Positions 8,726 to 41,321 of a stretch of 64,000 bases of DNA are shown in pieces. Source of the DNA: Candidatus Latescibacterota bacterium (GTDB lineage Bacteria > Krumholzibacteriota > Krumholzibacteriia > WVZY01). Positions within the stretch are counted from its first letter, which is position 1; every line of letters begins with the position of its first letter. The notes below the pieces were generated by a model, which did no database searches, was not told the DNA's origin, and saw only the letters and a list, made by a program, of their open reading frames with translations. Location of the stretch: NCBI GenBank assembly GCA_011772205.1, contig WVZY01000076.1, positions 114,567-178,566 on the forward strand, given 5' to 3'. The position numbers and the translations under genes are program-made.

Positions 8726-9490
8726 TTAATCGTCGATCTTGAAATAGAACGACTCATCGATTAGCTGAATGGCTTTGACGAGTTTTTCGAGCTCGATTCT
8801 CAGCTCGGGATCTTTGGATTTCCGGTACGCCGAGTAAAGATCGAGGAAGCGATCGCGGAGTTCTTTGAGCTCTTCGCTTTCTTGGTACTTGTCGATTGAT
8901 CTTTCAAGGTGATAGATGTCTCCGTTTCCCAACCTCTCTAGTATGTTGAAGTATTCGCCCCGCATGTGGCTGAGGATCTCCACGTAGTTTTCGAATCCCC
9001 GGGATAGCTTTTCGAGAACCTCACTGATCGCCGTCGGTTTCCGGAACATCGACTGGCTGTAAGAATAGGCAAACTGATAATATGCTTTTCCTTTCCCCAT
9101 GTGGGCTTCTTCCGTGTGTTTGAACAGCGGTGAAGAAACGCCCCTGCCATCTGGATTTCGAAAGATGCCAATTGATATGAGAAGAAAATCTGCATTGGTC
9201 TTGTAAATAGTGTATTTCAGCCGAACATCCGACGAGTCCTTTATCTTTTCGAACAGGCTCTGGTCATAAGGGGAGAGGTATTTTTTCGCCCTGCGGTGAT
9301 ATTCGGGATTCATGAACGAGCACAACAAGTTTGCGAGATATACGTTTACGTCTTCATCGTAGAAATCATGATTTGAAGGATAGCCTGTCTCCATCCGGCT
9401 GTAGAGGAGACAGTTCATCATGAAGAAGAAATCGGGTTCGATCTCTCTTTTGCTGTTCGATCCAAAGTTGATGTGAGATTCGAGTTCCAC
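8726..9490 (-). CDS. hypothetical protein (AT-rich, compositionally atypical orphan)
   Basis: Long ORF (254 aa) with a clearly lower GC than its neighbours and codons rich in K, E, Y, F, N and I. I recognise no family. Confidence 0.5.
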   Translation of the reverse strand: MELESHINFGSNSKREIEPDFFFMMNCLLYSRMETGYPSNHDFYDEDVNVYLANLLCSFMNPEYHRRAKKYLSPYDQSLFEKIKDSSDVRLKYTIYKTNADFLLISIGIFRNPDGRGVSSPLFKHTEEAHMGKGKAYYQFAYSYSQSMFRKPTAISEVLEKLSRGFENYVEILSHMRGEYFNILERLGNGDIYHLERSIDKYQESEELKELRDRFLDLYSAYRKSKDPELRIELEKLVKAIQLIDESFYFKIDD

Positions 9491-9810
9491 TGGTGTCTTT
9501 CTGTTGATGATAAGTGTTCATTCCCCCAATTCTTTGACCACGAAAAACAGCAAGCATTATGCCACCACGCAGTATCTGCTGTTTCTGCAGGTAATCTTGG
9601 GGACCACTCCCTTTCGCTGATTTCCAGTCCCTGAGGCTGATCTGGGACCCCTGCCTAAAATTTGATCGTGGAGAAATTATCGAAAAAGGCGGAGTGGAGA
9701 GCAGATGTGCTGCAAGCTACATTATATAATTGTGAATTATTATGATATAGCAAATCCAAAAGGCGTTTAGAGTGCCCATCAAATCTGATTAATTAAGATC
9801 GCTTTGGTAT

Positions 9811-10783: not shown

Positions 10784-11043
10784 GCATGACGGCTCCGTTA
10801 GCTCAACAATGACACGTTAAAAGCAACGCTGTTCCCACCCGGCTCTTGCAAACTGCAAAGGTCACTCACTCCTACAGTACGTATTTGCTGCTTCAGAACC
10901 GATTTAATCATAAAGAGTTAAGCACGTACCGGGTCTGTATTACACGGCCGGGTGCTGGCATAGTACTTGCGATCCAACCCACGAAACACCCAGTTTTTTC
11001 AATACGTTCGAAAGTAACGTCTCGCTCAAAAAGGAGATAAGCT

Positions 11044-13032
11044 GTGGATGCAAAGCGACCTCCAGCGCTGACTTCGCCTTGGAAAATCGGCTTTCTCGTT
11101 TCACTGCTACTTATTTTTCTAAGCGTCGGCGTGAACTACATGCTTTTTAGAATATTTCACCTATCGTGGAGCTGGATTGGATTAGAGGAAGGGAATTGGT
11201 TCTTCAACAAGGATCGATTTGTTCGTGAAATGTTCCCGCTCATGGCCCTCATTGCCCTCGCCTCACTCATCGCTTATTTTGCGATTACGTCGGCGGTTCG
11301 AAGGTACAAAGCTTATTTGGATTCCGGACATGATTATCGGAATCTCATAACAATGGTCAAAGGGATCAGAGATCTCGACGACGAGAATGTTATCAGAAAA
11401 TTAAGCAAGTATCCGGAGCTTCGTGATTTTCTTAGAAACGTGCGAGAGCAAGCCAAGGAAAGAGATCTAGCGCTTGCCGAACGTGAAGATGCTGTTGCCG
11501 AAAGAGAGCAGCAAAATGTTTCCTCTGATCTCATCAGAAGAGAAAGCGAATCGCTTGCGCGGGCGATTTTGGAGTTGTCGGATGGCGGATTAATCGGAGA
11601 CGTGAAAACTACCGTTCCGGATCTCATGCCAATTGAGAAAGCAATCCACGGGCTTGCAAACTCGGGTGGTGCCCAACCTGGAGCCGTTGACCTAGGAAAA
11701 CTTCATGGCGTGCGTAAGGACGTCGATGAAGCGATCAAGTATTTGAAAAGCCGCTTGGCCGAAAGCTCAAAAGAGCACAAAGCGAGCTGCAGCGTTGCTC
11801 AGGAGATCGAAAATCAGTTATCCCAGCTGAATGCAGTTCTGGCCAGCACGGGCGGGGTAACTCCCGCGGGAGCGGGCGGTACCGATTTCACTGGACTGGT
11901 CCAGTCGATGGATACGATAGAGCGGCTGTCCCTGGTTCTTGCAGATCTTGGCGAAGAAGCCAAGGGCATCGCAATCAATACGGCGCTGCAAGCCGGGTCG
12001 GGCGAGGGGGCGGTGGCAGATCTCATACAGTTGGCTGAAGATGTCCGCGGTGTCGCGTTGAAGTTTACGGACATGGCCCAATCCTATCAGGAAGCAATCG
12101 AACAAATGCGCAAGTCGATGGCGGGCGTGGAAGCTTCACGAGCAACGCCCGCTGGGGAATGCGAAGAGGGCCGGAATGTCGCACAGGTAGCTTCCGCGCT
12201 CAAAAGTAAAGTCTCACTGTGGGTCGAGCGCATGGTAGTCCTTTCGGATCAGATCAAGAACGTCGAGAAAAGCTTGGGACTAACGTTTGGGCCGCTCCAA
12301 GAAAAACTGGCCAACCTCAGAGAAGAGGGTGCGAAGCTGAGCGTGGAACCGACTGGCAAAGAAAGAGCGGCTAAGGGTCTCCAAGTGGAGACAGCTGGAG
12401 GCGGCTCGCCTGAGGAAGATCTGCAGGTAGAGACGAGCGCACCGCCGGGACTCGAACAAACAAAATCCGCTTCTACGGTGTTTTCCCAAATGGGAGCTCC
12501 CTCTCAAGACATACCAGGCCTCGAGAGCAATACGGGTCAGGTTTTCGACCAAGAGCCTAAAGAAGGGGAGATGTTCGCCGAACTCTCGAAGGCGGATTCA
12601 ATCGAGAAAGATGAAGACGTAACGTTCGAAGAAATCTCGTCGGAGAAGCTGGAAAAGCAGCGGGGAACGCCTTTGCGGCGTAAACGGCAGGACCCATCTG
12701 AGAGTGAACCGCCAGAAGAGACGATTGCAATAGAGCCTCCCAGCTCAGGATCCCCACTTGGAGGTCCTGCGGGCGAGGATACTGCGAGCGCTGATACATT
12801 CGAGGGAAAGATTGCTTTTGATCTGAGCAAAGCTACTGGATCCGAAGCCCAAGATTCTGAGGACTCGGAAGGCATGTACGACCACAACGCATTCTCATTT
12901 GAGGACATGAAAACAGCGGGGCGGCAGCAGATCCCAGCACAGAAGGCCGATTGGAAAGGTGCATTAGATGGTGCAACGGATGAAGAAGAAGTCATCGATC
13001 TTTACGAGCTCGGCGCTGTGGATTTCGTTTAG
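11044..13032 (+). CDS. membrane protein with a degenerate MCP-like signalling (hairpin-tip) segment and an acidic low-complexity tail
   Basis: GTG start with an AAAGGAGAT ribosome-binding site. Two N-terminal TMs with only a ~15-aa loop, so no sensor domain. Coiled-coil regions follow. The segment GIAINTALQAGSGEGAVADLIQLAEDVRGVALKF resembles the MCP consensus [31 protein letters not shown]. The C-terminal ~200 aa are D/E/S/P-rich. Confidence 0.55.
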   Translation: MDAKRPPALTSPWKIGFLVSLLLIFLSVGVNYMLFRIFHLSWSWIGLEEGNWFFNKDRFVREMFPLMALIALASLIAYFAITSAVRRYKAYLDSGHDYRNLITMVKGIRDLDDENVIRKLSKYPELRDFLRNVREQAKERDLALAEREDAVAEREQQNVSSDLIRRESESLARAILELSDGGLIGDVKTTVPDLMPIEKAIHGLANSGGAQPGAVDLGKLHGVRKDVDEAIKYLKSRLAESSKEHKASCSVAQEIENQLSQLNAVLASTGGVTPAGAGGTDFTGLVQSMDTIERLSLVLADLGEEAKGIAINTALQAGSGEGAVADLIQLAEDVRGVALKFTDMAQSYQEAIEQMRKSMAGVEASRATPAGECEEGRNVAQVASALKSKVSLWVERMVVLSDQIKNVEKSLGLTFGPLQEKLANLREEGAKLSVEPTGKERAAKGLQVETAGGGSPEEDLQVETSAPPGLEQTKSASTVFSQMGAPSQDIPGLESNTGQVFDQEPKEGEMFAELSKADSIEKDEDVTFEEISSEKLEKQRGTPLRRKRQDPSESEPPEETIAIEPPSSGSPLGGPAGEDTASADTFEGKIAFDLSKATGSEAQDSEDSEGMYDHNAFSFEDMKTAGRQQIPAQKADWKGALDGATDEEEVIDLYELGAVDFV

Positions 13033-13062
13033 ATTTGAGCTGATAAGCTTTTGGAGGAGTAC

Positions 13063-15141
13063 ATGAAACCCGCCCTAGACAGCCTCGGATTGTTTATCGC
13101 GCAGGTTAAGCAGCATGCAGCAGCGCTCACCGAACTCTTGACGAAGGGCTCGAGTGTCGACCAGGCAAGCGACCTGATGGAAAGGTGTATCGTCTCGACC
13201 ACTATGCTTGCGGGCAGCACATCGGTCATGGGATTAGAAAGCTGGCAGGATTGCTTATCTGCTTGCGAAGCCCTGCTATCTCGCTACCGCAGTCTTTCGC
13301 TCCCGTGGGATGAGAAAATCGCCCAAGTGCTTTCCGAGTTGATCGAGAAAGAGGATCTGCTTGTGTCAGCCCACGCTGGCGGCGAGATTGGTGACCTGTC
13401 CTCCATCGTGTCCGCAGAAGAGATTCAGGCGTTGCTGGAGGAGGCCAACGTATTGCTCGATACCGAACCGGTTACTGTAGCTCCCGAGGCGGATTCGAAG
13501 CCGGAAGGGGGATCGGCGGGGGGCGGGCGGAAATCCACGGGAACCGGGATTGCAGCGGAAATGAGTGGGGAGGCAGGCGCAGCGGAGAAAGCTGCAGGAA
13601 TTGATGCGAGTCAGAGGGCATTCCTAGCTGGAACGACAGCGTCTCTCAAGAAAGCCGCCAATTCTCTGTTCGATGGATTGTCGGTCATTCAGGGCGACAG
13701 GGGCGAAATATTGGATGGCTCGCTCATGGACATTCGCAAGCAGCTTTGTCTCCTTAGTTTTTTTGCACGCTCAATGGGTGGGATATTGAGGCAAGACTCA
13801 GGCGAAAATCTCCACACGGTCACATCATCGCTCGAGCCTGCAAAAGTGGCGCTTAAAGATTACGCGGGCGGTCTCTGCAGGAGCGGGGAGAGACATGTTG
13901 ATATTGCTTTCGGGGGCACTCAAAATGAAGTGGATGCAGGTCTACTTTTCCATATCGAGCGAGTGCTTCAGTGGATGATTCACGATGTATACGTTCGATG
14001 CGAAGAACCTCATCTCAAAATCGATGTCGAGGTCAGTGAGAAAAACGGGGCGCTGTGGTGGAAAGTGAGAGATAACGGGGAGAACTTCATAACAAACTCG
14101 AGAGTAGACCATGATGAGTTACTGGCATTCTATCCCTCCCTCAAGGAGGTTCGCAAAACACTCCAACATCTAGAAGGCGTCTTATGGGTTGAGCCCGATG
14201 AAAACCACGACACCCGTTTTGCATTCTCGACGCCTCTGTCCAAGGAGCAGATTAGATTCTTGGTCTGGGGTAAAGGGGAGAAAAGCTTCGCAGTTCTTTC
14301 AACACAATTCTGCACGACTTTGCAGGTAGAGTCTACTTCGGTCGAGTGTGATTCGAGAGGAGAACATTTGGTAATAGACGACCGCAGAGTTCCGTTAGTG
14401 AGATTGGAACTCGTCTACCCCGAGGCGCCTGGAGAAGGGAATGAGATCGCAGTCATAGGGGCTGTTGAAAAGAGAGTTGCATTTTACGTGGAGGGTGAAG
14501 GGCGACACGAGGAAGGTCTCTGGTTGAAGGACGCCATACCGTTGTGGAAAGGGCTTCCCAGTGGGGTGGCTCAAGTGGGACGCCGGAGAATCCCGCTCAT
14601 TGAAGCAAAGGATCTGTTGGAGAGATATCTATATGCCTCGGAAGAAGCTGTTGAAGCGGAAGTTTCTGGAGGAGTGGTACAAGAAGACAAGGATCTTTCC
14701 CAAGCTCAGGCAACGCTGGAGAAAGGTTCTCCATCTCCTCCAGAACTAAATACAGAGGGAAAAGAGGTCGATGTGCTCGTGGTGGAGAGAAGTGATGCCG
14801 TGAAGGAGGCGTTCGAGTCTGTATTAGCAAGAGGGAATTACAGAGCGAAAGTCGTGGGTAAGCTTGATGAGGCGATGGAGATCATAGAAAACAGCACTCC
14901 GCGTCTCATCATTAGCGAGTTCCGAATGCCTTCGATGGCGGCGAAGAAACTAACACAGGCCTTAAGGAAGGAAGGCAAAAACATCCCCGTGCTGGTGACG
15001 ACATCTCACTCAGGGGCCAATGCCGAGCTCCTCGTAGAGAAACTGGGTGTTTCAGGCTACCTCAGCAAGCCCCTCGATGACGACGCCGTTTATGCGAAGG
15101 TCACTGACATTCTGCGAGAGGAAAACGGTTCCGGCGAATGA
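13063..15141 (+). CDS. CheA-like protein with degenerate HPt, HATPase and receiver-like domains (putative pseudo-histidine kinase)
   Basis: ATG preceded by GGAGGAG. HPt-like N-terminus where the phospho-His position reads RCIVSTTMLAGSTSV instead of RAAHSIKGGAG. Kinase-core-like stretch HIERVLQWMIHDVYV…KVRDNGENFI…GVLWVEPDENHDTRFAFSTPL, against the CheA N, G1 and G2 boxes ending …GTxFxIxLPLT. A CheW-like region follows. The C-terminal receiver-like domain has E where the phospho-Asp should be (LIISEFRMP). Confidence 0.55.
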   Translation: MKPALDSLGLFIAQVKQHAAALTELLTKGSSVDQASDLMERCIVSTTMLAGSTSVMGLESWQDCLSACEALLSRYRSLSLPWDEKIAQVLSELIEKEDLLVSAHAGGEIGDLSSIVSAEEIQALLEEANVLLDTEPVTVAPEADSKPEGGSAGGGRKSTGTGIAAEMSGEAGAAEKAAGIDASQRAFLAGTTASLKKAANSLFDGLSVIQGDRGEILDGSLMDIRKQLCLLSFFARSMGGILRQDSGENLHTVTSSLEPAKVALKDYAGGLCRSGERHVDIAFGGTQNEVDAGLLFHIERVLQWMIHDVYVRCEEPHLKIDVEVSEKNGALWWKVRDNGENFITNSRVDHDELLAFYPSLKEVRKTLQHLEGVLWVEPDENHDTRFAFSTPLSKEQIRFLVWGKGEKSFAVLSTQFCTTLQVESTSVECDSRGEHLVIDDRRVPLVRLELVYPEAPGEGNEIAVIGAVEKRVAFYVEGEGRHEEGLWLKDAIPLWKGLPSGVAQVGRRRIPLIEAKDLLERYLYASEEAVEAEVSGGVVQEDKDLSQAQATLEKGSPSPPELNTEGKEVDVLVVERSDAVKEAFESVLARGNYRAKVVGKLDEAMEIIENSTPRLIISEFRMPSMAAKKLTQALRKEGKNIPVLVTTSHSGANAELLVEKLGVSGYLSKPLDDDAVYAKVTDILREENGSGE

Positions 15142-15336
15142 CCCGGATCCAAGATTGGCTGGTTGCGGGGCCTAATAAGCTAAGACGTTTAATCATAAGC
15201 GCTTCCATTGGGTGAATATCCATTGGCATTGAGGCCGCTTTTCCAATAGTGGCGGTGGTTTTGGTACAGATCGTGCAACCGCTTGAAATGGGTGAGATAC
15301 TCAGAATACGATCGGCAAGCAAAAGGATGGAAAGTT

Positions 15337-15558
15337 ATGAGCAAGTGGAGAGAATCTGATTATTCCAGCATTATCATCGGCGGCGAGGATGCGGATGTCG
15401 TGATGACTTCGGTGGAAGCAGCAGAGTATCTCAAGATGCATGTCAAAACGGTTTGTAGGCTTGCAAAAGAGAAGAAAATTCCTGCGAAGAAGGTGGGCAG
15501 TGAGTGGAGGTTCCTCAAGAGCGTTTTGGATAAATGGCTTGCCCAGGAGGTGGTCTAG
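15337..15558 (+). CDS. excisionase-family helix-turn-helix DNA-binding protein
   Basis: About 74 aa from the internal Met, with an AAGGATGG ribosome-binding site. The TSVEAAEYLKMHVKTVCRLAKEKKIP segment is typical of HTH_17/Xis-type domains. Confidence 0.55.
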   Translation: MSKWRESDYSSIIIGGEDADVVMTSVEAAEYLKMHVKTVCRLAKEKKIPAKKVGSEWRFLKSVLDKWLAQEVV

Positions 15559-15632
15559 AGAGGCGTCGCCCGTGAGATTTCACCTCTCTGCTTTCCCCCC
15601 AATGCCGGACCGATCACCACCATACCACGAGA

Positions 15633-17465
15633 GTGCCAATGGCCAAAACGGTCATAGAGAAAGTCCCTTCAAAAAGCTCCGGTGTAACAGTATTTAAAAT
15701 CACCGGCACTCTCGGTTTCCACGAAAAAGAGAACCTTATCAAGCTGTTTGATGAGTGCGAGAAGCACGGGATTAGCAAGCTCGTAATGGATTTTTCCGAG
15801 TTGACATCACTTGGAGGAGGGTGCGCCAAAATCATTCGCGAAAAGGCCGATTCGGGGGATTTCTTCATCGGTGTGGCAGGTGCATCGAAGACGACTCTGA
15901 AATTCCTACGTAATGAAGATGAGCCAGGGCGTGTTCGCTTCGCATCGACTGTAGAGGAAGCGATGGAAGAGATCGGAAGCGGATCTGGCGAGGAAGTCGT
16001 TGTGGAGCACCCCGCGAAAAAATCCGCTTCAACCTCCGCGGCTAAGAAACAGAAAGCCAAGAAGCTCCAAGCGAAGGAAAAAGAACCCAAGGTGTCGGCT
16101 CGTGTGGAAGCTGATCACGCGAAAGAGGATGAGATTGAAAAGCATGAAACCGATGGAGCCAGATCCGAGGCACAAAATCGCACCGCACCTGATACCGGCG
16201 ACAATGGACTACCGAACGTGATCTGTCTCGGCCACGACGCCAACGGCGTCGTGAGCGAAGAAAGCACGGGAGAGCCCGTCGACGAGTGGTACGCTGATGC
16301 GCCTGTGCCGGGTCTGGAGGGGGCGCCGATCGAGGAGAAATCGGCGGATCTCGAAAAATCATCGGATAGGAAGCTCAAGAGAAGGTTGGTGCAATATAGC
16401 TCGCTTCTCTCGATCAGCTCGGATTTCAACCGAATCATGGAGAAATCGAAGCTTCTGGACACGATTCTTCTTACCACGATCGCCCAGGTTGGCGTGGAAT
16501 CTGCAGCCTTCTTCGAATACCGGGAGGATGGGCTCGAGCCGATCGCGGCGAAGGGGATCGAACTCGAACAGTGCACCCCGCTGGTTCTCGAAGGGACAGG
16601 GGATGGACGCATCTGGGAAGGTGATGAAATCTTGGAGATGTCTGATTCTCCGATCGAGGAAGAGTCCAAAAAGAAAGCCCTGTCATCGGGATTTGCTTGG
16701 GCGGCTCCTGTGATCATTTATAACGAATTCAGAGGGCTTGTTCTGATCGGCAAGCCAATCAAAAAAACATTAAACGAGGATTCGCTCGAAGTTCTGAACA
16801 TAATTGTCCGGCAAGCCGCAGTTGCTTATGAAAACACCCGCCGTTTCGAGGAAGAAAGTGAGCGAATCCTTGGTCTGGTCCAGAGTCTTATCTCGCTCAT
16901 CGAGGAGAGAACCCTTGCGAGGGGCAACACGTCGCTCATCGCAGGTCACTCGTATATGCTCGCAAAAAAGATGCACTACCCGGACGAGCTCATCAAGGAT
17001 CTGATGTTCGGCGTGGTACTTCGAGACATTGGGATGATCAAGGTGAGCGACCTCATTGTAAGGAGTCCCAGGGAGCTCGGTAAGGAGGAGTGGGAGATTA
17101 TCAAGAGGCACCCAATCGACGGTGCCGACATGCTTAGGAAGATGAAGTTCTCGGACCACGCCGTCAAGATTGTCCTGTGCCATCATGAGCGGTATAACGG
17201 CGAGGGTTATCCGAATCAATTAAGGGGCGGTGAGATTCCTCTCGGCGCCAGAATCGTCTCGGTCGTAGAGAGTTATGGGGCGATGTTGCAGGACCGTCCG
17301 ACAAGACCTGCGCTGACGCGCGAAGAGGCTTTGAACACTTTGAAGGAAAATTGGGGGATGCGATACGACCCTGAGGTCGTCGAACAATTCGTCGAGATCA
17401 TCGAAGAAGAAATACGCACGGGAGAAAACAAACAATACATGAGCAGCGAATTTTTCAGCGTCTAG
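15633..17465 (+). CDS. STAS–GAF–HD-GYP domain protein with a substituted HD motif
   Basis: N-terminal STAS/anti-sigma-antagonist-like domain, a long acidic linker, a GAF domain, and a C-terminal HD-GYP (HHERYNGEGYP). The usual LHDIGK reads LRDIGM, and the upstream His motif is not obvious. Confidence 0.7.
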   Translation: MPMAKTVIEKVPSKSSGVTVFKITGTLGFHEKENLIKLFDECEKHGISKLVMDFSELTSLGGGCAKIIREKADSGDFFIGVAGASKTTLKFLRNEDEPGRVRFASTVEEAMEEIGSGSGEEVVVEHPAKKSASTSAAKKQKAKKLQAKEKEPKVSARVEADHAKEDEIEKHETDGARSEAQNRTAPDTGDNGLPNVICLGHDANGVVSEESTGEPVDEWYADAPVPGLEGAPIEEKSADLEKSSDRKLKRRLVQYSSLLSISSDFNRIMEKSKLLDTILLTTIAQVGVESAAFFEYREDGLEPIAAKGIELEQCTPLVLEGTGDGRIWEGDEILEMSDSPIEEESKKKALSSGFAWAAPVIIYNEFRGLVLIGKPIKKTLNEDSLEVLNIIVRQAAVAYENTRRFEEESERILGLVQSLISLIEERTLARGNTSLIAGHSYMLAKKMHYPDELIKDLMFGVVLRDIGMIKVSDLIVRSPRELGKEEWEIIKRHPIDGADMLRKMKFSDHAVKIVLCHHERYNGEGYPNQLRGGEIPLGARIVSVVESYGAMLQDRPTRPALTREEALNTLKENWGMRYDPEVVEQFVEIIEEEIRTGENKQYMSSEFFSV

Positions 17466-17477
17466 AGGTGAATAGTC

Positions 17478-19043
17478 ATGCAAGAAGATATCCTCGTCGT
17501 CGATGACGATCCGGATGTTCTGGACATTCTAAGCGAAACGCTCAATAAGCGGGGTTATAACGTTGTGGTTGCCCTGGATGCGCAGTCTGCGCTCCGGTCT
17601 TTCAAGCGGAAGCAACCCAGCCTCGTGATCCTGGATATCATGCTGCCGGATATGGACGGCTTGGAGGTCTTCAAGCGGATGCGCGCAGACCAAGCGGATC
17701 GCTACATTCCGATCCTCTTCCTCTCGTCTAACGGCGATCTGGAGACAAAGCTAAGCGGATTCGATATGGGGGCGGAAGATTACCTGGTAAAGCCGGTTTC
17801 GCTGAAGGAATTGAATGCTAAGATCGGGAAGATTCTAAAACGCACGTCCCAGGCCCAGGCGCTCTGGGAAGAGCGCGAAGCGTTGGAAACGGAAGTAACG
17901 AAGGAGCATGAGAATTACATTCATATCAATAAGCAGCTAAAGAAGCAGGTCCTCGCTATGAAGACGCTTTTTTCCATATCGCAGGACCTGACCCGCATCC
18001 TCGAACTGGATGAATTGATCAATGCCTTTGCACTCACGATTGTTGGAGAGCTGAGAATCTCGAGTATGGCGTTTTTCGCCCTGGTGAGCGAGAACAGCAA
18101 GATCCTCAGCCTACGGGGAGTCAAAGGTTTCCGAAAGGAGAAATTCGCAGGTCTTGAAATACCCAGAGACTGTGCCTTCGTTGAATGGCTGGGAACCCGG
18201 GCCAAGCCCAAAAAGATAGTGAGGAGCAACGACCGCACGTGGGTCAAGCGACTTCCAGACATCCGGTTGGCTGCTTTCGAGTACGCAACGCCAATCATGA
18301 TCAAGGACAAGATGAGAGGAATCGTTTTCACAGGGCCAAAGCTGAGCAGGGATGATTACACACCATATGACCTCGATATGCTGCAGTTCATTTGCAACTC
18401 CGCTGGAGTCGGTATGGAGAATGCACGATTGTTTAAAGAGCTTCAGACAACGTATCTATCAACGGTAAAAACGCTTGTTTCCATTATCGAAGCGAAGGAT
18501 AGCTATACGAGGGGCCATACGGAACGGGTTGCGGAGTACGCCATAGCGATCGCAGAAAGAATGAATCTTCCCCAAGAGGAGCAAAGGCGGATCGCATTCG
18601 GTGCGGTCCTTCATGATATCGGTAAACTCGGGGTCCTGGAAAAAGTCCTCAATAAAAAGGAGCAGTTGGATACTGAGGAATGGAAGATATTGAAAGCCCA
18701 CCCCGAAGTCGGAGCCAGCATCATCGAGAATATGGAGTTCCTTACGGGAACGGTAGAACTGGTGCGGCATCACCATGAAAACTGGAATGGGAAAGGTTAC
18801 CCGGATGGGTTGAAAGGAGAGGAGATCCCAATTGGATCGAGAATCATTGCAGTCGCAGATGGCTTCGATGCAATGACAACAGATCGTCCCTACCGTAAAG
18901 CGCTAAAATGGACCGAAGCCCTCTCGACAATCAAGGAAGGCTCCGGCATCCAATACGATCCCGAAGTTGTGCGGAGCTTCGAGGAGATTATCAGAGACAA
19001 GAACTTCAGAAAACGAATGAGAGAAAAGCATTCCAATCCATAA
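17478..19043 (+). CDS. response regulator with GAF and canonical HD-GYP phosphodiesterase domains (RpfG-like)
   Basis: REC domain (VVDDDPD…LVILDIMLPDMDG…K). HD-GYP motifs are intact: YTRGHTERV, LHDIGK, HHHENWNGKGYP and AVADGFDAMTTDRPYR. GAGGTGA ribosome-binding site. Confidence 0.85.
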   Translation: MQEDILVVDDDPDVLDILSETLNKRGYNVVVALDAQSALRSFKRKQPSLVILDIMLPDMDGLEVFKRMRADQADRYIPILFLSSNGDLETKLSGFDMGAEDYLVKPVSLKELNAKIGKILKRTSQAQALWEEREALETEVTKEHENYIHINKQLKKQVLAMKTLFSISQDLTRILELDELINAFALTIVGELRISSMAFFALVSENSKILSLRGVKGFRKEKFAGLEIPRDCAFVEWLGTRAKPKKIVRSNDRTWVKRLPDIRLAAFEYATPIMIKDKMRGIVFTGPKLSRDDYTPYDLDMLQFICNSAGVGMENARLFKELQTTYLSTVKTLVSIIEAKDSYTRGHTERVAEYAIAIAERMNLPQEEQRRIAFGAVLHDIGKLGVLEKVLNKKEQLDTEEWKILKAHPEVGASIIENMEFLTGTVELVRHHHENWNGKGYPDGLKGEEIPIGSRIIAVADGFDAMTTDRPYRKALKWTEALSTIKEGSGIQYDPEVVRSFEEIIRDKNFRKRMREKHSNP

Positions 19044-19960
19044 CTCTCCCTCCACTCGTCTATAACAGATATTGTCGGTTCCCGTGCACATGCATGGGAT
19101 ATCGTCAACTGCGTTTCCGATGGCATATATGTCCTTACGCTCCATTTCCTCTTACATTTGACCGACTCGGCGACCTGCTGAACTGCCGGTTGCTGTAAAT
19201 CCAGTGGACGGACCGGGCAGCAGCCGGTGAGCTCAATTGGAAAATACCGCACGGAGAATTTCATAATCCGTATCGCTGCAATGAGATATATAAACCTTTA
19301 ATGATGATTCTGGCGGTTGCTTGGCACTTGTTTTGCGATGACGAGAAGCTGGCAATGCGAGACTTGGAGAGATGAGGGGTAAGCATGTGTGAAGTGTTGG
19401 GTTTGGGATGATGTGGTGCAACGCATAGAGTGCTTCTCATCTCCTAATGGAAAAAGAGGGAGTCGGATCAAGCGTGGATTGGGAGGAACCACGTTGCGGT
19501 CCTTGGAAAGCCAGCTTTTAGCGGCCGGACACTTCGAACGAGGCACCTAACGGAGCAGTTAGGTAATCTTAACTTCGCGGCTAGCAACTGCAGAGGGTGT
19601 TGCTAAATGACCCGCCAATCGGGCGGGCTGTTCCGACGTGCTTCAGAGAGGAACACCATCGCTTGCAGGTCTTTTCAAAAGAGCTCCCTCTTTTTTCATT
19701 GCTCGTGCAGATGCTGGCTCAATCCGGTATTGAGTGGAAGAACGCGTCCCCGGGTTCCAAGCCTTTCCGACCGGCACGGCTCCTTCGAAGATAAGGGCAT
19801 GCGCAGGACTCATCATATTCTGCACTTAGAAATGCCTTGTAACGCCTGAGCCAGATCCCTATCATTAGCATAACTCGAATGCTTAAGAGCGGTTACCGCG
19901 CCGGCTAAGTATGGCTTGTTTTGCGGATAACTGCTTGCGCTTCTCCCTCTTCATGGCGGT

Positions 19961-22636
19961 GTGCTCATGCCTCATCGGCAGGTGGATAACAGCGTAGTCA
20001 AGAGAACTTTGCCCAATGGGCTTACTGTTTTGGTAAAGGAAGACCACTCCAGCCCCGTAGTCGCTATTAATGTGTGGATGAATGTCGGATCAGTTAATGA
20101 GGCTGAAGAAATGAGCGGTTTGGCCCATTTCCAAGAGCATATGGTTTTCAAAGGGACCGAAAAGTACGGGGTTGGAGAGATTGCCAACCTCATCAAATCG
20201 GCCGGAGGGAATTTGAATGCCGGAACGAGCTATTCCTACACGATGTACTATGTCGTGCTGCCTTCCCGAGCTTTCTCTCTCGGTCTTGCCGTTCAAGCGG
20301 ATGCAATGATGCACTCCACCTTCGATCCAGATGAGTTCAGGAAGGAAAGGATCGTCGTTTTGGACGAAGCCAGGATGTATGATGATCAACCGGATGCGTA
20401 CACTTTCTATCGGACCATGGAACTGGGTTTCAATGTCCACAACTACAGACGGCCGATTGCCGGTTATGAAAGCGTGTTGGAAAAAATAAGCAGAGATCAA
20501 CTGCTCGATTTCTACCGAACATATTACAGGCCGTCGAACGCTATCATCACTGTAGTAGGGGATGTGGACCTCAATAGAGCTTTCGATAAAATCGAGGAAG
20601 TCTACGGCGAATGGCAGGATCGCTCCTCACAGATTTATGAGTCACCTGAAGAGCCGGAGCAGAAGGAATTCCGCTTCAAGTCGTTCAGGGGTAGTATCGA
20701 TCATGCATATATGGGTCTAGGCTTCCATATTCCAGATATACTTCACGACGATTATCCCGCACTCGAAATGCTGACAGAACTCCTTGCCGCCGGACGGAGT
20801 TCCAGGCTTTATCTGAATGTACTGGAGAAAAAGCGCCTGCTAACGACGTTCCACGCAGAGGTGCTGGCGGAGAAGTGGCCGGGATTTTTCCAGATTTACG
20901 CATCGATGCCTGCGGAAAAATGGAATGCGGCAAGGAATGCAATCTTTGATGAGCTGCAGCGTTTCAAGAACGAAGCCGTGAGCGAGGAAGAGCTTATTAA
21001 AGCAAGGCGCCAGCTTCAGAAATCGATTTACTCCGAGCTGGAAACGATGGAAGGGCAAGCATCAAATCTCGGCTATTACGAAACGTTGGGGGATTATAGG
21101 CTGGCTGAAAGGCATCGCGAGGCGATCAGCAAAGTTACAGCAGATGAAATCGTCGCCGTTGCGAACAAGTATTTCAATCTGAAGAACTGTTCGGTGGTTG
21201 CCTATTTGCCGACGGACGATACAGTGCCGGAACCAGACGCCGGCGATGTGGAGAAGGTGTTGGAGCAGAGGCTTTCACGCCCCCCGGCGCCGGTGTCTTT
21301 TCAAACACCCAGGCCAGGGGAAAAAGGTCCTGCGCGCGCCAGCAAATCCAAGGCTGCTACCGTGAAGACCCGGCAAGCAGAGAAGACGCAAATAGAAATG
21401 CTGCGGCTGGCAAACGGCGTCCGCGTTCTCGTCAAAAGGAGGACTTCTGTCCCGCTCGTTGCGTTGATCACGATGGTTCAAGGCGGACCTCGCCTGGAGC
21501 CGAAAGGAAAGGCTGGCCTCTCCCTGCTCACCTTCCGTTCGCTCCTCAAGGGGACCGCATCCTTTTCTGCTGAGGACATCGCCAAGACGGTTGAGGGATT
21601 CGGGGGAAGCATCGAGAGCTTCTCCGGTTTCGACTCGGGAGGTGTTTTCGTCAACGTTTTATCGGATAATGCAGAGGCGGTTCTCCCCGTGTACAAGGAG
21701 ATTGTTCGCAGCCCGGATTTTTCCAAGAAAACGGTGGAAAAGGAAAAGGAAAAGCTTTTAGAGGAACTCGCGAAACGGCGTGATAACCCCATTCAGTTCG
21801 GAATCGACAATCTCTTTCTGAACGTCTTCGGTGATCATCCATATTCTCGTCCCTTTCTTGGTGAAGAATCCCAGGTTAAGCGGCTTGCAGCGGAAGACTG
21901 CAAGAAATGGTACGAGCGAATCCTCGTTCCCGACAATATCGTGCTGTGCTTCGTAGGGGATATTCCGAGGGACAGGGCTGTAGACATCGCCGAGCAGCTA
22001 TGCGGGGACCTGGAGATAAGCGAGGTACCGGAGCCCGAGATCGAAGCTCCTCAATATCCTGTGCATCCAGGCTTACATGAGCTCAGGCGCCCGCAGATCA
22101 AGCAAGCCGTTGCGTTGGCAGGATTCACCGCGCCGCCGATGATGAGCAAAGAAGCGATTAGTCTCGAGGTGCTGAACGGGATTCTCACGGGTCTCGGCGG
22201 AAGACTTTTCGTGGAGCTCAGGGATAAGCGCTCGCTCGGTTATATGACGGGATCCGCGCTTGTTTCACTGAAGGAACGTTCCTTGTTTTTTGGCTACGCG
22301 AATCCAACTCCGGACAGAGTAAATGAAGCCTTGGAGATTATCATCAATGAGCTGGTGAAGATGGGGGCAGAAACGGTGAGTGATGAAGAGTTCGAGCGGG
22401 CCAAGGAATGGCTGCTCGGCACCCAGATCATGAGGCTTCAGAGAAACCTGGCTCAGGCAGTTGCCTATGGGACATACGAGGTTCTCGGCTTCGGGTATGA
22501 TGTTGTGGACCGGACGCGGGAGATCATCCAGGAAATTACCAAGGCAGATATCATGAAATCAGCTGCTGCTGTCTTCGATGAGAATAAGGCCGCGCTTGTT
22601 GCACTTCTTCCCGGTGAAGGATCTTCTGACGAATGA
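19961..22636 (+). CDS. M16 family zinc peptidase, two tandem M16 units (insulinase/PqqL-like)
   Basis: Inverted zincin HxxEH motif (HFQEHMVFKGT) with downstream Glu. 891 aa with an active plus inactive M16 repeat organisation. GTG start, or an ATG two codons in. Confidence 0.85.
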   Translation: MLMPHRQVDNSVVKRTLPNGLTVLVKEDHSSPVVAINVWMNVGSVNEAEEMSGLAHFQEHMVFKGTEKYGVGEIANLIKSAGGNLNAGTSYSYTMYYVVLPSRAFSLGLAVQADAMMHSTFDPDEFRKERIVVLDEARMYDDQPDAYTFYRTMELGFNVHNYRRPIAGYESVLEKISRDQLLDFYRTYYRPSNAIITVVGDVDLNRAFDKIEEVYGEWQDRSSQIYESPEEPEQKEFRFKSFRGSIDHAYMGLGFHIPDILHDDYPALEMLTELLAAGRSSRLYLNVLEKKRLLTTFHAEVLAEKWPGFFQIYASMPAEKWNAARNAIFDELQRFKNEAVSEEELIKARRQLQKSIYSELETMEGQASNLGYYETLGDYRLAERHREAISKVTADEIVAVANKYFNLKNCSVVAYLPTDDTVPEPDAGDVEKVLEQRLSRPPAPVSFQTPRPGEKGPARASKSKAATVKTRQAEKTQIEMLRLANGVRVLVKRRTSVPLVALITMVQGGPRLEPKGKAGLSLLTFRSLLKGTASFSAEDIAKTVEGFGGSIESFSGFDSGGVFVNVLSDNAEAVLPVYKEIVRSPDFSKKTVEKEKEKLLEELAKRRDNPIQFGIDNLFLNVFGDHPYSRPFLGEESQVKRLAAEDCKKWYERILVPDNIVLCFVGDIPRDRAVDIAEQLCGDLEISEVPEPEIEAPQYPVHPGLHELRRPQIKQAVALAGFTAPPMMSKEAISLEVLNGILTGLGGRLFVELRDKRSLGYMTGSALVSLKERSLFFGYANPTPDRVNEALEIIINELVKMGAETVSDEEFERAKEWLLGTQIMRLQRNLAQAVAYGTYEVLGFGYDVVDRTREIIQEITKADIMKSAAAVFDENKAALVALLPGEGSSDE

Positions 22637-22662: not shown

Positions 22663-23451
22663 TCACGTAGCGGAGGCAGGGCTCGGGACGGTTTCTTCCG
22701 TTCCCAAGCCGAAGTTCTTGAGCAAGTCGTTCCTGAGGGTTTTCGTATCGATCTTCCGCTTTAGCTTTCCTCCCTGTGCATATGCGATGGTTCGTGTTTC
22801 TTCCGAGACCACGATGATGATTGCATCGGTCTCTTCGGATAAACCGAGGGCGGCGCGGTGACGTGTGCCGAGGGTTGCGGATAGCCGCTGGTCTTGTGTC
22901 AAGGGGAGAATACATCCCGCTGCGACAACCCGATCGTTCTGTATGATCACGGCGCCGTCGTGCAGGGGGCTTGGGGGGGTGAAAATCGTTTCTAGAAGCT
23001 CCGCGCCCACTTTAGCGTCGATTTTGGTGCCGGTTTCCACGTAGTTTTTCAAACCCATATCCTTTTCCAAAACGATGAGCGCGCCAAGCCCTTTCTCGGT
23101 CAGGTGGGTGCACGCTTTGATGATTTCGGGGATGATCCCGGTCTCTTCCACTCTAAAGTATCGGCGAAGAAAGCTGTGCTGCCCGATGGAAGCGAGGGCC
23201 CGGCGCAATTCGGGCTGAAAAATGATGACGAAAGCGATGACCCAAACCGTCTTGAGGCTCGAAATGATCCAGTTCAGCGCGATGAGGTTGATCCATTGGG
23301 CAGCTACGGAGAGGACGAAGAGGATAATGAGCCCGATGAACATGTGCACCGCTCGGGTTCCCTTCATCAGAATGAAAAGCCTGTAGAGCAGATAGGACAC
23401 GACCAGGATGTCGAGTATGTCGATTATTAGATCTGTAGAAATGAAGCCCAT
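22663..23451 (-). CDS. cdaA: diadenylate cyclase (c-di-AMP synthase)
   Basis: Three N-terminal TMs plus a DAC domain (DGAVII…, LGTRHRAALG, and the RTIAYA-type motifs). Confidence 0.88.
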   Translation of the reverse strand: MGFISTDLIIDILDILVVSYLLYRLFILMKGTRAVHMFIGLIILFVLSVAAQWINLIALNWIISSLKTVWVIAFVIIFQPELRRALASIGQHSFLRRYFRVEETGIIPEIIKACTHLTEKGLGALIVLEKDMGLKNYVETGTKIDAKVGAELLETIFTPPSPLHDGAVIIQNDRVVAAGCILPLTQDQRLSATLGTRHRAALGLSEETDAIIIVVSEETRTIAYAQGGKLKRKIDTKTLRNDLLKNFGLGTEETVPSPASAT

Positions 23452-38924: not shown

Positions 38925-40958
38925 TCAGTGCCCATCGGTTTCGTTAGGTTTTCCAAAGAGCATCACCATCCCGACAACAGCTGCCGCACCCACTAGGAGA
39001 ACGATGGGGGATGGGATGCGGTAAGCCGCGGGGAAGTACCCTAGGAAGATAGCGATGAGGGCGACTGCCAATGCGTAAGGCAGCTGTGTCCTCACATGGT
39101 CGATGTGATCGGCGGCGCTGGCCATCGATGACATAATCGTCGTATCCGAAATCGGGGAGCAGTGATCACCGAACACGCTTCCAGCGAGAATCGCTGCGAT
39201 ACCCGATAGGAGAATCGCCTCCTGAGCGGGGCCGCTAACAGCGTTCTGCTGAGTTACTTGAAACACTAAGGGAATGCTGATTGGTGTCAGGATCGTCATT
39301 GTGGCCCATGAGGTTCCGGTGGCGAAGCTGACCAGGGCTGCGATCAGAAATATCAGCGCCGGCAATAGATGGGGGGATAGGACCCCGGAAACCTTGCTTA
39401 CTAGATAATCAGCTGTGTGAAGATCGACGCATACGGAGCCAATGCTCCAGGCGAGCAGGAGGATGATGAACGCCATGAACATGGATTTCATGCCGGCAAC
39501 CCAAGCATTCATGGCTTCAGAAACCGTTAAGAGGCGTTGGCCGACGGCGAGAAGGAAGGCGACCACGCACCCGCTGAGCGAGCTCCACAACAGGGCGTCG
39601 AACGAGTTGCTAGCGCGGAATGCTTCCATGAGGCTCCAACTCGTTTGTCCCGATCCCATTAAAGCGCTTCTGCCGGTAATGACAAGCCCAATGATCGTTC
39701 CGAAAACGACCGTGGCTACCGGCAGAGCAGCGTTGTACCATCGCGGGATAACTCCCTTGGCGGGCGTGATATCTCTATCAATATTGGAAATCGGAACGGC
39801 CTTCTCCGACAGAACGTCTCCCTTTCGCCTGGCCCGGCGTTCCGCTTTGAGCATCGGGCCGAAATCCCTCCTGGTCGAGGCGATCATCAGCACGAACAAA
39901 ATGGTGAGTATTGGATAATAGCTGTAGCGAATCGAGGAAACGAAAGTGGTAAGGGGGTTTCGATCGACATTCAGCGAGTCGAAGGCGTCCTTGATCAAAC
40001 TGATCTCGAAGCCAATCCAGCTGCTGATGACACCGATGGCTGCAACTGGGGCGGCTGTAGAGTCGACGATATAAGAGAGCTTTTCCCGGGAGATTCGCAA
40101 TTTGTCCGTTAGTGGTCGCATGGTGTTCCCGACAATGAGCGTGTTCGTGTAGTCATCGAAGAAGATCGCAATTCCCATGAGCCAGGTCGACAGCTGGCCC
40201 CGTCTGGGAGTCGTTGCAATCGTCGCAATCTTGTTCACGATTCCCTGGGTACCTCCCATTTTCGAAAAAATCCCCACCATTCCACCGAGGAGAAGTGTGA
40301 AAACCGACACAGCAACGTGATCGGCTCCGCTTTCCCCGGCCAGAGCATCGACAGTGTAATGGTCGACAACGTAGAAAAATCCCCGAACCAGCTGAAAGTC
40401 ATTCACGAAAAATGCTCCCATCCAGACTCCCATGAAAAGGGCGATAATGACCTGGCGGAAGATCAGTGCTACAAGGATCGCCATAATCGGGGGAAGCAAT
40501 GTAAGAACACCGGGAAGTGATCTGATTATGTGCACCCTGGTATCGCCAGCAGCTTTGAGGGTGACGGTATGTCTACCTGCGGAAGGGATTTTCACTCCTT
40601 GGATCGTCTCTGGGAGTGTTCCTTCGTGGGTGAAAACGACCTCTCCGTGTTTTGTTATTTCCAACGTGTAAGGGATTCTCTCCCCCGAAGGGTGAGCCAG
40701 GTCGATCTCAAAAGGGACTCCAGACGCTGCCACTTTAGGGAGCGCAGAGGCGTGCCAGTTCCCGTCCGCTCCGCGCCCCTCATGCGGATAGACTGAAACG
40801 GCGAAGAGCGAGATGGCGAAGAATATGGGTTTCCATGAGTGGCGACGAGTTGCACCAGCGGTTTTTGGATTGTGGCATTCATGGTGCCGGGTGCAGCGTC
40901 CAGCGATAGAAGTCCACTTGAGCATTGTGTCCATCGGATCAGTCGAATTCTCCAGCAA
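38925..40958 (-). CDS. NhaC-family Na+/H+ antiporter with an N-terminal extracytoplasmic extension
   Basis: NhaC-type core (…FFDDYTNTLIVGNTMRPLTD…), preceded by about 150 aa with a signal or TM segment and a beta-rich domain. The exact start is uncertain. Confidence 0.7.
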   Translation of the reverse strand: MLENSTDPMDTMLKWTSIAGRCTRHHECHNPKTAGATRRHSWKPIFFAISLFAVSVYPHEGRGADGNWHASALPKVAASGVPFEIDLAHPSGERIPYTLEITKHGEVVFTHEGTLPETIQGVKIPSAGRHTVTLKAAGDTRVHIIRSLPGVLTLLPPIMAILVALIFRQVIIALFMGVWMGAFFVNDFQLVRGFFYVVDHYTVDALAGESGADHVAVSVFTLLLGGMVGIFSKMGGTQGIVNKIATIATTPRRGQLSTWLMGIAIFFDDYTNTLIVGNTMRPLTDKLRISREKLSYIVDSTAAPVAAIGVISSWIGFEISLIKDAFDSLNVDRNPLTTFVSSIRYSYYPILTILFVLMIASTRRDFGPMLKAERRARRKGDVLSEKAVPISNIDRDITPAKGVIPRWYNAALPVATVVFGTIIGLVITGRSALMGSGQTSWSLMEAFRASNSFDALLWSSLSGCVVAFLLAVGQRLLTVSEAMNAWVAGMKSMFMAFIILLLAWSIGSVCVDLHTADYLVSKVSGVLSPHLLPALIFLIAALVSFATGTSWATMTILTPISIPLVFQVTQQNAVSGPAQEAILLSGIAAILAGSVFGDHCSPISDTTIMSSMASAADHIDHVRTQLPYALAVALIAIFLGYFPAAYRIPSPIVLLVGAAAVVGMVMLFGKPNETDGH

Positions 40959-41321
40959 GGCTACCTCGCTCGGGGATTAGCAAAAAACGAGATGAGTGAG
41001 TGTGCCAGGAAGGCGCTTAGGTTACCAGAATAGCGACTTTTTCGCAAGCGGCATCGATGTGAGGATGGGTGCATTCATTCTCTCCATCCATACCAAGGAG
41101 ACGATGGGCGCTGCGTCATCGGCAGGAGGATCCAATTGGTATGCAGCTTGCAGTTTTCTGTACGGCGCTTTCAACCGGCGTGGTTTGGAAAATTTCTATT
41201 CAACTCAAAGGGAATTGTGACGAATATGTTTCCAGTTGCAGAGCACGCTGATATTTTTAGTCGAGCACCACGAGTCGGCGTGTATCGGGAGAAAAAAATT
41301 TTCGCAGCTGCGATGTTTTTT

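Follow-up and report, generated by a model that had tools for sequence, protein, structure and literature searches.

Organization and conservation of the locus

We analyzed a stretch of 64,000 nucleotides from a Candidatus Latescibacterota bacterium (GenBank assembly GCA_011772205.1, contig WVZY01000076.1, positions 114,567 to 178,566; hereafter the window) and, within it, a cluster of five genes at positions 11044 to 19043 which an earlier reading of the sequence (the original prediction) had described as a chemosensory-like module built from degenerate parts. The cluster encodes a diverged membrane protein resembling the methyl-accepting chemotaxis proteins (MCPs), G1; a CheA-like protein with a fused receiver (REC) domain and without the usual phosphorylation residues, G2; a small helix-turn-helix (HTH) protein, G3; and two HD-GYP proteins, one degenerate (G4) and one with all of its motifs (G5). 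All five open reading frames (ORFs) were found on the + strand, co-directional as claimed (Table 1). The description of the genes as tightly packed was accurate for G1 and G2 (18 bp apart if the ORF of G2 is taken to begin at 13051 and 30 bp if at 13063) and for G4 and G5 (12 bp), but not for G2 and G3, which are separated by 195 bp containing a conserved sigma-54 promoter. Within the G1-G2 and G4-G5 pairs the genes overlap or lie 0 to 30 bp apart across loci, a spacing that suggests translational coupling.

Table 1. Positions of the genes, protein domains, and other sequence features of the locus (window coordinates)
Feature	Position (nt)	Strand	Residues	Basis or remark
G0, conserved 254-aa soluble protein	8726..9490	-		divergent; own sigma-54-type promoter
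G0 sigma-54-type (-24/-12) promoter, TGGCATAATGCTTGCT	9549..9564	-		pattern match; GG-N10-GC upstream of G0 in other loci
Palindrome TTGCAAACTGCAA, candidate enhancer-binding-protein site	10846..10858	+		~98 bp upstream of G1 promoter
G1-G2 sigma-54-type promoter, TGGCATAGTACTTGC	10956..10970	+		GGCAT..TTGC invariant in 6/6 loci; also L091, L093
G1, MCP-like membrane protein	11044..13032	+		profile search, hhalign, AlphaFold2, Foldseek
G1 transmembrane helices			~12-38 and ~64-90	AlphaFold2 model
G1 helical hairpin	tip 11998-12012		217-431, tip 319-323	
G1 acidic disordered tail			432-648	~200-215 residues
G1 C-terminal motif DLYELGAVD(Y/F)	12988-13029	+	649-662	family conservation
G2, phospho-dead CheA-CheY-like protein	13063..15141	+		structure and profiles; ORF opens at 13051, residues counted from 13051
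G2 P1/HPt-like	13081-13461		11-137	
G2 P3-like hairpin	13606-13800		186-250	
G2 truncated P4/GHKL	13816-14244		256-398	
G2 P5/CheW-like	14245-14646		399-532	
G2 pseudo-receiver	14773-15129		575-693	
G3(-G4-G5) sigma-54-type promoter, TGGTACAGATCGTGCA	15262..15277	+		GG, A, and TGC invariant in 7-locus alignment; pattern match vs 0.21 expected
G3, 73-aa HTH_17 (excisionase-family) DNA-binding protein	15337..15558	+		Pfam, NCBIfam
G4, STAS, GAF, degenerate HD-GYP	15633..17465	+	STAS ~15-110, GAF ~273-398, HD-GYP 422-582	likely start ATG 15639
G5, REC, GAF, HD-GYP	17478..19043	+	REC 5-116, GAF 177-313, HD-GYP 332-497	phosphodiesterase-type response regulator
Sigma-54-type promoter, TGGCACTTGTTTTGC	19322..19336	+		~280 bp downstream of G5; GGCA..TTGC invariant in 4/4 aligned loci
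Candidate structured non-coding RNA or leader, ~350 nt	19347..19696	+		between G5 and M16 peptidase gene

Pfam searches with the single sequences gave nothing significant for G1, only Response_reg (residues 575 to 684) for G2, HTH_17 for G3, HD_5 for G4, and Response_reg, a weak GAF_2, and HD_5 for G5. Since standard annotation gave G1 and G2 no MCP or CheA label, these labels needed independent testing; single-sequence searches of Pfam, NCBIfam, and the PDB (phmmer) gave no match for G1 and, for G2, the REC domain alone, and profiles and structure were required.

The search for syntenic clusters which the original prediction had recommended recovered the cluster in at least eight other Latescibacterota/Krumholzibacteria-type loci, at 25% to 58% identity. 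The order was G0 on the - strand, a CN_hydrolase gene, the MCP-like, CheA-like, HTH_17, STAS-HD-GYP, and REC-HD-GYP genes, an M16 peptidase gene, and cdaA-folP-ftsH. The full order, including the CN_hydrolase and M16 peptidase genes, was present in loci L001 (whose G2 is 46% identical), L002 (on the complete 4.3-Mb chromosome CP070677.1), L003, and L005 (a Krumholzibacteriia bin). In L090, L091, and L093, whose G2 proteins are much more distant, those two genes were gone and the core was contiguous, so that the arrangement G0, G1-G2, G3-G4(-G5) was maintained in all of these loci. A wider scan of genome contigs was swamped by the generic receiver pattern; apart from L008, a true family member, it brought up ordinary response regulators. 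We concluded that the locus belongs to the vertically inherited core genome of Latescibacterota/Krumholzibacteria-type bacteria.

As had been predicted, no cheW, cheR, cheB, or cheY gene was found among the approximately 48 large ORFs scanned across the window, and CheR, CheB, and CheY genes were also absent from L001, L002, L005, L090, L091, and L093. CheR/CheB-like genes occurred only at L003, inside an opposite-strand block between G5 and the M16 peptidase gene (L003 positions 16394 to 21582) that encodes a PAS hybrid histidine kinase, a CheR-PAS protein, and a CheB-CheR_N fusion; the block is an insertion, missing at L001, L002, L005, L090, and L091. Flagella and type IV pili have been reported from single-cell genomes of Latescibacteria (PMC4454575), so that canonical Che genes may be present in other parts of these genomes.

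G2 is a diverged CheA-CheY hybrid

The AlphaFold2 model of G2, built on an alignment of 42 family members, was confident, with a mean predicted local distance difference test (pLDDT) score of 82, and was laid out as a helical bundle (residues 11 to 137), a disordered linker, a two-helix hairpin (193 to 250), an alpha/beta domain (256 to 398), a beta-rich domain (401 to 530), and a receiver (575 to 693). When this model was compared with the PDB by Foldseek, ranks 1 to 8 were occupied by CheA of core signalling units and by CheA-289 (E values of 1e-14 to 1e-10 over up to about 400 to 415 columns), the top matches 3ja6_C, 6s1k_A, 8c5v_A, and 1b3q having E values of 1e-14 to 2e-13 over about 400 columns; ordinary histidine kinases ranked below CheA. 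The G2 family profile aligned by hhalign with Escherichia coli CheA (NC_000913) at E 9e-6 over CheA residues 324 to 597, and a profile of the N-terminal bundle aligned with 13 canonical HPt domains at E 1.8e-5 over 100 columns. A profile of P3 to P5 searched against 1.84 billion representative proteins gave 726 matches, of which the first 90 or so were family-like; the tier that followed, at E 5e-11 to 1e-8, consisted of proteins with Pfam-confirmed Hpt, HATPase_c, CheW, and Response_reg domains, some with H-kinase_dim. Against single E. coli CheA and CheW sequences, the isolated P1, P3, and P5 sub-profiles were not significant in hhalign, although P4 and the whole protein were, and in an hmmsearch of the PDB with the P3-P5 profile CheA reached just E 0.003, below a spurious de novo protein.

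With residues 1 to 572 of G2 as query we found 45 relatives, all of about 650 to 715 residues, only 2 of which had a CheW domain on record; those with named sources all came from Latescibacteria/Latescibacterota or Krumholzibacteria bins. Weak Pfam matches could be detected in individual members, HATPase_c in 21, CheW in 12, and Hpt in 1 of the 42 aligned sequences. The CheW-fold coupling module of the locus is the P5 domain of G2 itself. Proteins from four cyanobacterial, Competibacter, and Myxococcota loci (L009, L010, L021, L030) matched G2 residues 364 to 690, approximately, at 21% to 24% identity; their length and position suggest ordinary CheA-REC hybrids, in keeping with the ancestry inferred for G2. 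The claim that G2 is CheA-like was borne out by all of these approaches, and both the profile searches and the structure spoke against a protein devoid of CheA-like domains. We concluded that G2, a CheA-CheY hybrid that has diverged, still has the whole series of folds: an HPt-like bundle, a dimerisation hairpin, a GHKL domain, a CheW-like P5, and a receiver.

The catalytic residues of G2 are lost throughout the family

In the HPt alignment, the phospho-accepting His48 of CheA mapped to G2 residue 51, a column occupied by Arg (27), Asn (4), Lys (3), Thr (2), Ser (2), Gln (1), or Asp (1) and never by His in the 42 sequences; nor did they have a conserved histidine anywhere in the corresponding helix. 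The ATP-binding motifs of P4 fared no better. The Asn of the N box was replaced by Asp in 41 of 42 sequences, the G1 box DxGxG had become D341-N-G343-x-N345, and two 16-residue gaps took out the F box, the ATP lid, and the G2 box (GRGVGMD), leaving an alignment to 136 of 189 CheA residues and a domain about 50 residues shorter than in CheA. The receiver aligned well with CheY (E 8.5e-15), with Thr87 and Lys109 kept, D12/D13 replaced by Glu and Gln/Arg, and the position of the acceptor Asp57 occupied by Glu in 33 of the 42 sequences and by Asp in 9. More distant relatives carried equivalent losses, and one subgroup had no receiver at all. The original prediction that all phosphorylation motifs of G2 are substituted needs correction: the lid and G2 box are deleted, and the Asp and Gly of the G1 box are retained. 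Judged from the alignments, G2 is family-wide without the HPt histidine and the ATP lid, F box, and G2 box, and usually without the receiver aspartate.

Could these losses reflect non-functional decay of a former Che operon? Catalytic motifs are gone from both G2 and G4 (see below), and Pfam is blind to G1 and to most of G2. However, full-length ORFs occurred in more than 40 sequence clusters at 36% to 53% identity, with dozens of invariant residues in G1 and G2, the substitutions themselves (RD in G4, Glu in the G2 receiver, and D-N-G-x-N in P4) were conserved, and the G2 model was confident. Intact ORFs at this level of identity, together with conserved substitutions, indicate a constrained pseudo-enzyme instead; the conservation pattern effectively refutes decay, which we consider extremely improbable.

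G1 is a diverged, sensorless chemoreceptor homolog

The 80 relatives of G1 were all annotated as hypothetical, with an MCPsignal domain on record in 1, and Pfam gave no match to G1 above threshold; sub-threshold MCPsignal matches appeared in 10 of 50 homologs. When a profile built from these 50 homologs was searched against the PDB, the best matches were nearly all chemoreceptors (TM1143, Aer, PcaY, and Tsr fragments), with TM1143 at the top (E 1e-5). A conserved block, LGEEAKGIAINTALQAGSGEG..LAEDVR, fell on the tip of the receptor hairpin, aligned to the receptor block ending in ..ADEIR, and the same tip block was recovered when the profile was aligned with E. coli Tar by hhalign (E 5e-4). 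The AlphaFold2 model (pLDDT 66) consisted of two transmembrane helices, a long hairpin, a disordered acidic tail, and a better-predicted end segment, and in a Foldseek search the top 12 matches were almost all MCPs (best E 3.6e-4). The resemblance to the MCP signalling hairpin is remote but specific. As the modelled transmembrane helices enclose only about 25 residues, the label "sensorless" given in the original prediction is fair, and we concluded that G1 is a diverged, sensorless chemoreceptor homolog. With structure prediction, fold search, and profile search all in agreement, the architectural reading of the G1-G2 pair proved correct. Within the C-terminal segment of G1, the residues L-Y-x-L-G-A-V-D were invariant across the family. 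Canonical chemoreceptors carry a C-terminal pentapeptide tether, and the tethered motif of G1 recalls this docking pentapeptide, although by analogy only.

One HD-GYP protein is degenerate and the other intact

The motifs of G4 and G5 were surveyed in an alignment of five ortholog pairs and by motif extraction from three more distant loci. In G4 the HD_5 match was strong; STAS (E 0.0014) and GAF lay below the Pfam cut-off, and STAS was on record for orthologs. The HD dyad had become RD in all seven orthologs in which the motif was located, just as the original prediction had noted for this protein, the Lys of HDxGK was replaced by Met, VAD had changed to VVE(S), and the first His was lost in most orthologs; HHER.NGEGYP was kept. 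G4 is left without the HD dyad or the full set of metal ligands. In known HD-GYP structures the positions lost in G4 include metal ligands, and from its sequence G4 is therefore probably not a normal phosphodiesterase. G5 had been described as a canonical REC-GAF-HD-GYP protein, and we agree: its receiver had every expected residue (DD, D, S, and K), its orthologs always carried RGHTERV, HDIGK, HHHE..GYP, and VAD.FDAM, and the HD dyad, HHE...GYP, the upstream GH(T), and the downstream D, by which it is predicted to be a complete HD-GYP domain, were conserved in 7 orthologs. It matched NCBIfam NF053512 ("response regulator c-di-GMP phosphodiesterase") below the family cut-off. The degeneracy of G4 and the integrity of G5 were each conserved among orthologs.

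An intact receiver raises the possibility that G5 is an ordinary two-component output, the response regulator of an unlinked histidine kinase which degrades cyclic di-GMP (c-di-GMP) when phosphorylated, with G1 and G2 at most modulating it, for example with the pseudo-receiver acting as a kinase sink or competitor. There is good precedent for a REC-HD-GYP regulator under the control of a separate kinase, as in RpfC/RpfG; the G5 receiver keeps every phospho-acceptor residue, and in L003 a hybrid PAS histidine kinase with CheR/CheB-like genes lies immediately downstream. No kinase is conserved in the locus, however, the L003 block being an insertion, and such an arrangement leaves the conserved pairing with G1, G2, and G4 unexplained. 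We regard it as unlikely.

The STAS domain of G4 brings in partner switching of the SpoIIAA/RsbV type, an option which the original prediction had left open and which found no support here. The sole GHKL-like domain, P4 of G2, lacks the lid and the G2 box, and no PP2C phosphatase gene was present at the window locus or at L001, L002, L003, L005, L090, L091, or L093; neither an intact GHKL serine kinase nor the phosphatase is available. A related idea is that G2 is still an enzyme whose trimmed GHKL domain binds nucleotide through Asp341, Gly343, and Asp312 and which acts on a non-histidine substrate, for example by phosphorylating the STAS domain of G4 in the manner of the serine kinases SpoIIAB and RsbW, or else senses cyclic dinucleotides. 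GHKL anti-sigma kinases do phosphorylate STAS proteins, one of which is encoded two genes downstream, and D341, G343, and D312 (the last replacing the N-box Asn) are invariant or nearly so. SpoIIAB-type kinases, though, retain the ATP lid, F box, and G2 box deleted here, P4 aligns over just 136 of the 189 CheA residues, and there is no PP2C or sigma-factor partner in the locus, all of which makes an enzymatic G2 very unlikely.

Sigma-54-type promoters and G3

In an alignment of the G2-G3 spacer from seven loci, the sole invariant columns beyond those of the Shine-Dalgarno sequence and start codon spelled GG-N10-GC within TGGYAY-N5-KTGC, which is the sigma-54 promoter consensus. The pattern matched six times in the window against 1.2 expected, and four of the six matches were at this locus; predicted -24/-12 elements precede G1, G3, and the candidate RNA, where they were invariant in alignments, and G0, where one is present. 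The TTGCA-N3-TGCAA palindrome upstream of the G1 promoter is perfect, its TGCAA..TGCA columns were invariant in 6/6 loci, and it has two matches in the window; it is a candidate, and likely, binding site for an enhancer-binding protein. Scans for consensus sigma-70 promoters and for terminators did no better than with shuffled sequence. From the conserved sigma-54 promoters before G1 and before G3, the five genes would form at least two transcription units and, plausibly, one regulon. That the five genes form a single module, as in the original prediction, is favored by the shared synteny and promoter class, whereas the separate promoters of G1 and G3 and the occurrence of G3 without the other genes elsewhere speak against it. 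Sigma-54 control, the divergent gene G0, and the candidate RNA did not figure in that prediction and are added here.

Elsewhere in the window, two more sigma-54-like sites (40873-40887 and 41137-41152, +) lie in or near the gap between genes for a Na+/H+ antiporter and a pyruvoyl arginine decarboxylase, the second overlapping a TGCAAGCTGCA palindrome. A gene at 54947-59680 (-) encodes a 1577-residue STAND NTPase-TPR-Sigma54_activat-HTH_8 protein (Fis-type HTH), an unusual architecture for an enhancer-binding protein; its presence indicates that the organism uses sigma-54 activators, and nothing ties this activator to the locus.

Both Pfam and NCBIfam confirmed the small excisionase-type HTH protein of the original prediction as HTH_17. 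Between loci whose G2 proteins are 37% to 46% identical, G3 was 88% to 97% identical, and its close relatives filled 480 clusters. We rejected the idea that G3 is a mobile-element excisionase or the locus of mobile origin: the locus has a fixed core-genome position and an even GC content, no integrase was found within 10 kb on either side of G3, and the identity is high. A further G3 copy (L088, 9001-9225) adjoins Wzi and type IX secretion system (T9SS)-type genes. As this copy lies outside the cluster, G3 may be an independent housekeeping regulator or a broadly acting DNA-binding protein, and whether it belongs with the signalling genes is uncertain.

G0, a candidate RNA, and the surrounding region

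G0 adjoined the cluster in 8/8 other loci compared, at 25% to 82% identity and with an invariant DEDVN.Y motif; it was better conserved than G1 or G2 and in L090 and L093 was directly divergent to the MCP-like gene. It gave no Pfam or PDB match and had no detectable homolog of assigned function; it is possibly a sixth member of the locus. Downstream of G5, the candidate RNA contains a long-range helix, AAAGAGGGAG/CUCCCUCUUU, followed by a U-run. Blocks of it were conserved in 4 loci, RNAalifold predicted 66 pairs, and across these loci 90% of the cells paired, as against 42% to 50% in slid controls, with 30 pairs changed on both sides as against 3 to 6. It matched no Rfam family, and a metagenome scan for the motif gave chance matches only, none with the 3' helix partner. 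It could be a small RNA or the leader of the peptidase gene, and its membership in the system is uncertain.

The other large ORFs scanned in the window are housekeeping genes (NADH dehydrogenase subunits, IMPDH, FolP, FtsH, TilS, KARI, GltX, and others), GC content is even at approximately 50% to 55%, and neither the ORF scan nor base composition gave signs of mobile elements. Rfam searches at both thresholds found no match at the locus, including no c-di-GMP riboswitch. At every locus the cluster faces a convergent tilS-hpt-ftsH-folP-cdaA array that ends in the c-di-AMP cyclase gene cdaA (in the window at 22663-23451, -). The shared position may be a coincidence of synteny; that the HD-GYP proteins are linked to cyclic di-AMP (c-di-AMP) is also conceivable.

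A possible mechanism

We tentatively propose that a phospho-dead chemosensory complex controls the neighboring HD-GYP proteins by contact, an interpretation of the sequence data that we hold at somewhat less than an even chance. G1 and G2 would assemble through the receptor-tip/P5 interface into a membrane-bound complex of the chemosensory type, which would be unable to autophosphorylate and would relay a conformational change of the receptor by protein-protein contact instead of phosphotransfer. The pseudo-HPt and the Glu-substituted pseudo-receiver of G2, and the C-terminal peptide of G1 on its disordered linker of about 200 residues, could serve as docking surfaces that recruit or allosterically control the co-located HD-GYP proteins. 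Of these, G5 would be the catalytic cyclic-dinucleotide phosphodiesterase, its own receiver being either phosphorylated by an unlinked kinase or governed by docking, and G4 a non-catalytic adaptor or sensor; the whole set would be expressed on demand through sigma-54 and some enhancer-binding protein. The coupling of the module to c-di-GMP turnover is likewise predicted from the domains encoded.

Several observations weigh against this proposal. Canonical arrays need CheW and none is encoded nearby; 9 of the 42 G2 homologs have Asp at the receiver acceptor site; and the locus adjoins a c-di-AMP cyclase gene while the substrate of the HD-GYP proteins is only predicted. G1-G2 and G3-G5 lie behind separate predicted promoters, and the L088 copy of G3, 73% identical, follows a sigma-54 promoter in a marine contig stretch without the rest of the cluster. 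L093 has no G5 and the G2 of L091 (P0273) has no REC domain, so that no single partner pair is universal. Finally, the housekeeping flanks (IMPDH and cdaA-folP-ftsH-tilS) are likewise syntenic, which makes gene order alone weak evidence of function. Most of these points, namely the separate conserved promoters, the solitary G3, the equally syntenic flanks, and the loss of G5 in L093, would be expected if the genes were neighbors and not partners, with G1-G2 a relic reused, for example, as a polar or membrane scaffold and G3, G4-G5, and the RNA independent members of a sigma-54 regulon in a slowly rearranging region. Yet G0, G1, G2, G3, and G4 stay contiguous and in order where the CN_hydrolase and M16 peptidase genes drop out, and all units carry one unusual promoter class, with its concentration in the window at this locus; we find mere proximity somewhat unlikely. 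A broader form of the contact proposal, in which an MCP/CheA-derived complex has been converted wholesale to a phosphate-free scaffold whose sigma-54 regulon includes G3, G0, and the RNA of about 350 nucleotides, is possible, if rather doubtful.

The finding stands: the locus is conserved, and existing annotation does not account for it. We consider it best filed as a phospho-dead variant of chemosensory signalling that goes with HD-GYP proteins and with control by sigma-54; the functional model is a proposal. Because Pfam is blind to G1 and to the CheA-like core of G2, the pair would probably be missed by domain-based censuses of signal transduction. The locus provides a clonable set of proteins from an uncultivated lineage with which the model could be addressed in vitro, and G0, the candidate RNA, and the conserved promoters of the sigma-54 type are further leads.

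Comparison with known systems

Full-text literature searches on CheA pseudokinases, His-less CheA, and combinations of chemosensory with HD-GYP or of STAS-GAF-HD-GYP with chemoreceptor proteins returned no relevant description, consistent with the original prediction that the architecture is undescribed. Chemosensory pathways are defined by CheA autophosphorylation, and classifications demand a kinase with CheW, CheR, CheB, and CheY; by the definition of a recent review a system comprises six or more proteins, one of them an active kinase, and the review assigns the systems linked to c-di-GMP, of which Wsp is the model, to the ACF and TFP classes (PMC8846402). In Wsp of Pseudomonas (ACF class), the receptor WspA and the CheA-CheY hybrid WspE act with the REC-GGDEF protein WspR in a non-flagellar output (PMC8846402), and the locus described here likewise encodes an enzyme of the c-di-GMP type that carries a receiver, next to its chemoreceptor and CheA-CheY hybrid. 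Wsp, however, has an active kinase, CheW, CheR, CheB, and a cyclase output, whereas in the CheA-like protein of this locus the His and the ATP lid are missing, as usually is the Asp, no CheW, CheR, or CheB is encoded, and the neighbors are HD-GYP proteins; with the kinase residues gone and an HD-GYP in place of a GGDEF domain in the REC-fused enzyme, the locus is not Wsp-like, and it was correctly predicted to match neither canonical Che nor Wsp. Canonical CheA-CheY hybrids with Hpt, H-kinase_dim, HATPase_c, CheW, and REC domains, such as P0328, P0331, and P0347, share the domain order and fold of G2 and are its nearest relatives outside the family, but their catalytic motifs reach Pfam thresholds and those of G2 do not, key residues being absent.

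Each component has its own counterpart. G5 resembles the RpfG-type phosphodiesterases in its intact receiver and HD-GYP motifs and differs from them in the GAF domain between REC and HD-GYP and in having no RpfC-like cognate kinase encoded nearby. PA2572 of Pseudomonas aeruginosa is a degenerate, enzymatically inactive HD-GYP protein with YN-GYP; G4 likewise keeps the fold and the GYP while the histidine of the HD dyad and other residues are conservedly lost, but it is fused to STAS and GAF instead of REC and its pattern is RD, K to M, and D to E. The CheA3 and CheA4 proteins of Rhodobacter sphaeroides are split or incomplete CheAs which do not autophosphorylate alone but complement each other and still phosphorylate; G2 is, like them, a CheA homolog in a chemosensory cluster that would not autophosphorylate, but unlike them it has neither the phosphate-accepting His nor the ATP lid. 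DivL, with Tyr for His, and the FrzS receiver keep two-component folds for protein-protein signalling after loss of the phospho-site, and their structures (4q20 and 2gkg) were among the fold matches of G2. These are single proteins in otherwise active phosphorelays, whereas here the CheA-like core and its fused receiver are both dead and the receptor has diverged with them; the receptor/CheA pair is nonetheless under clear purifying selection and always beside HD-GYP proteins. If the broader form of our proposal is correct, the signalling logic of this lineage would have no described parallel among the Che, Wsp, and Frz pathways, and the receptor-kinase scaffold can be reused for phosphate-free signalling, much as in the pseudokinases of eukaryotes.

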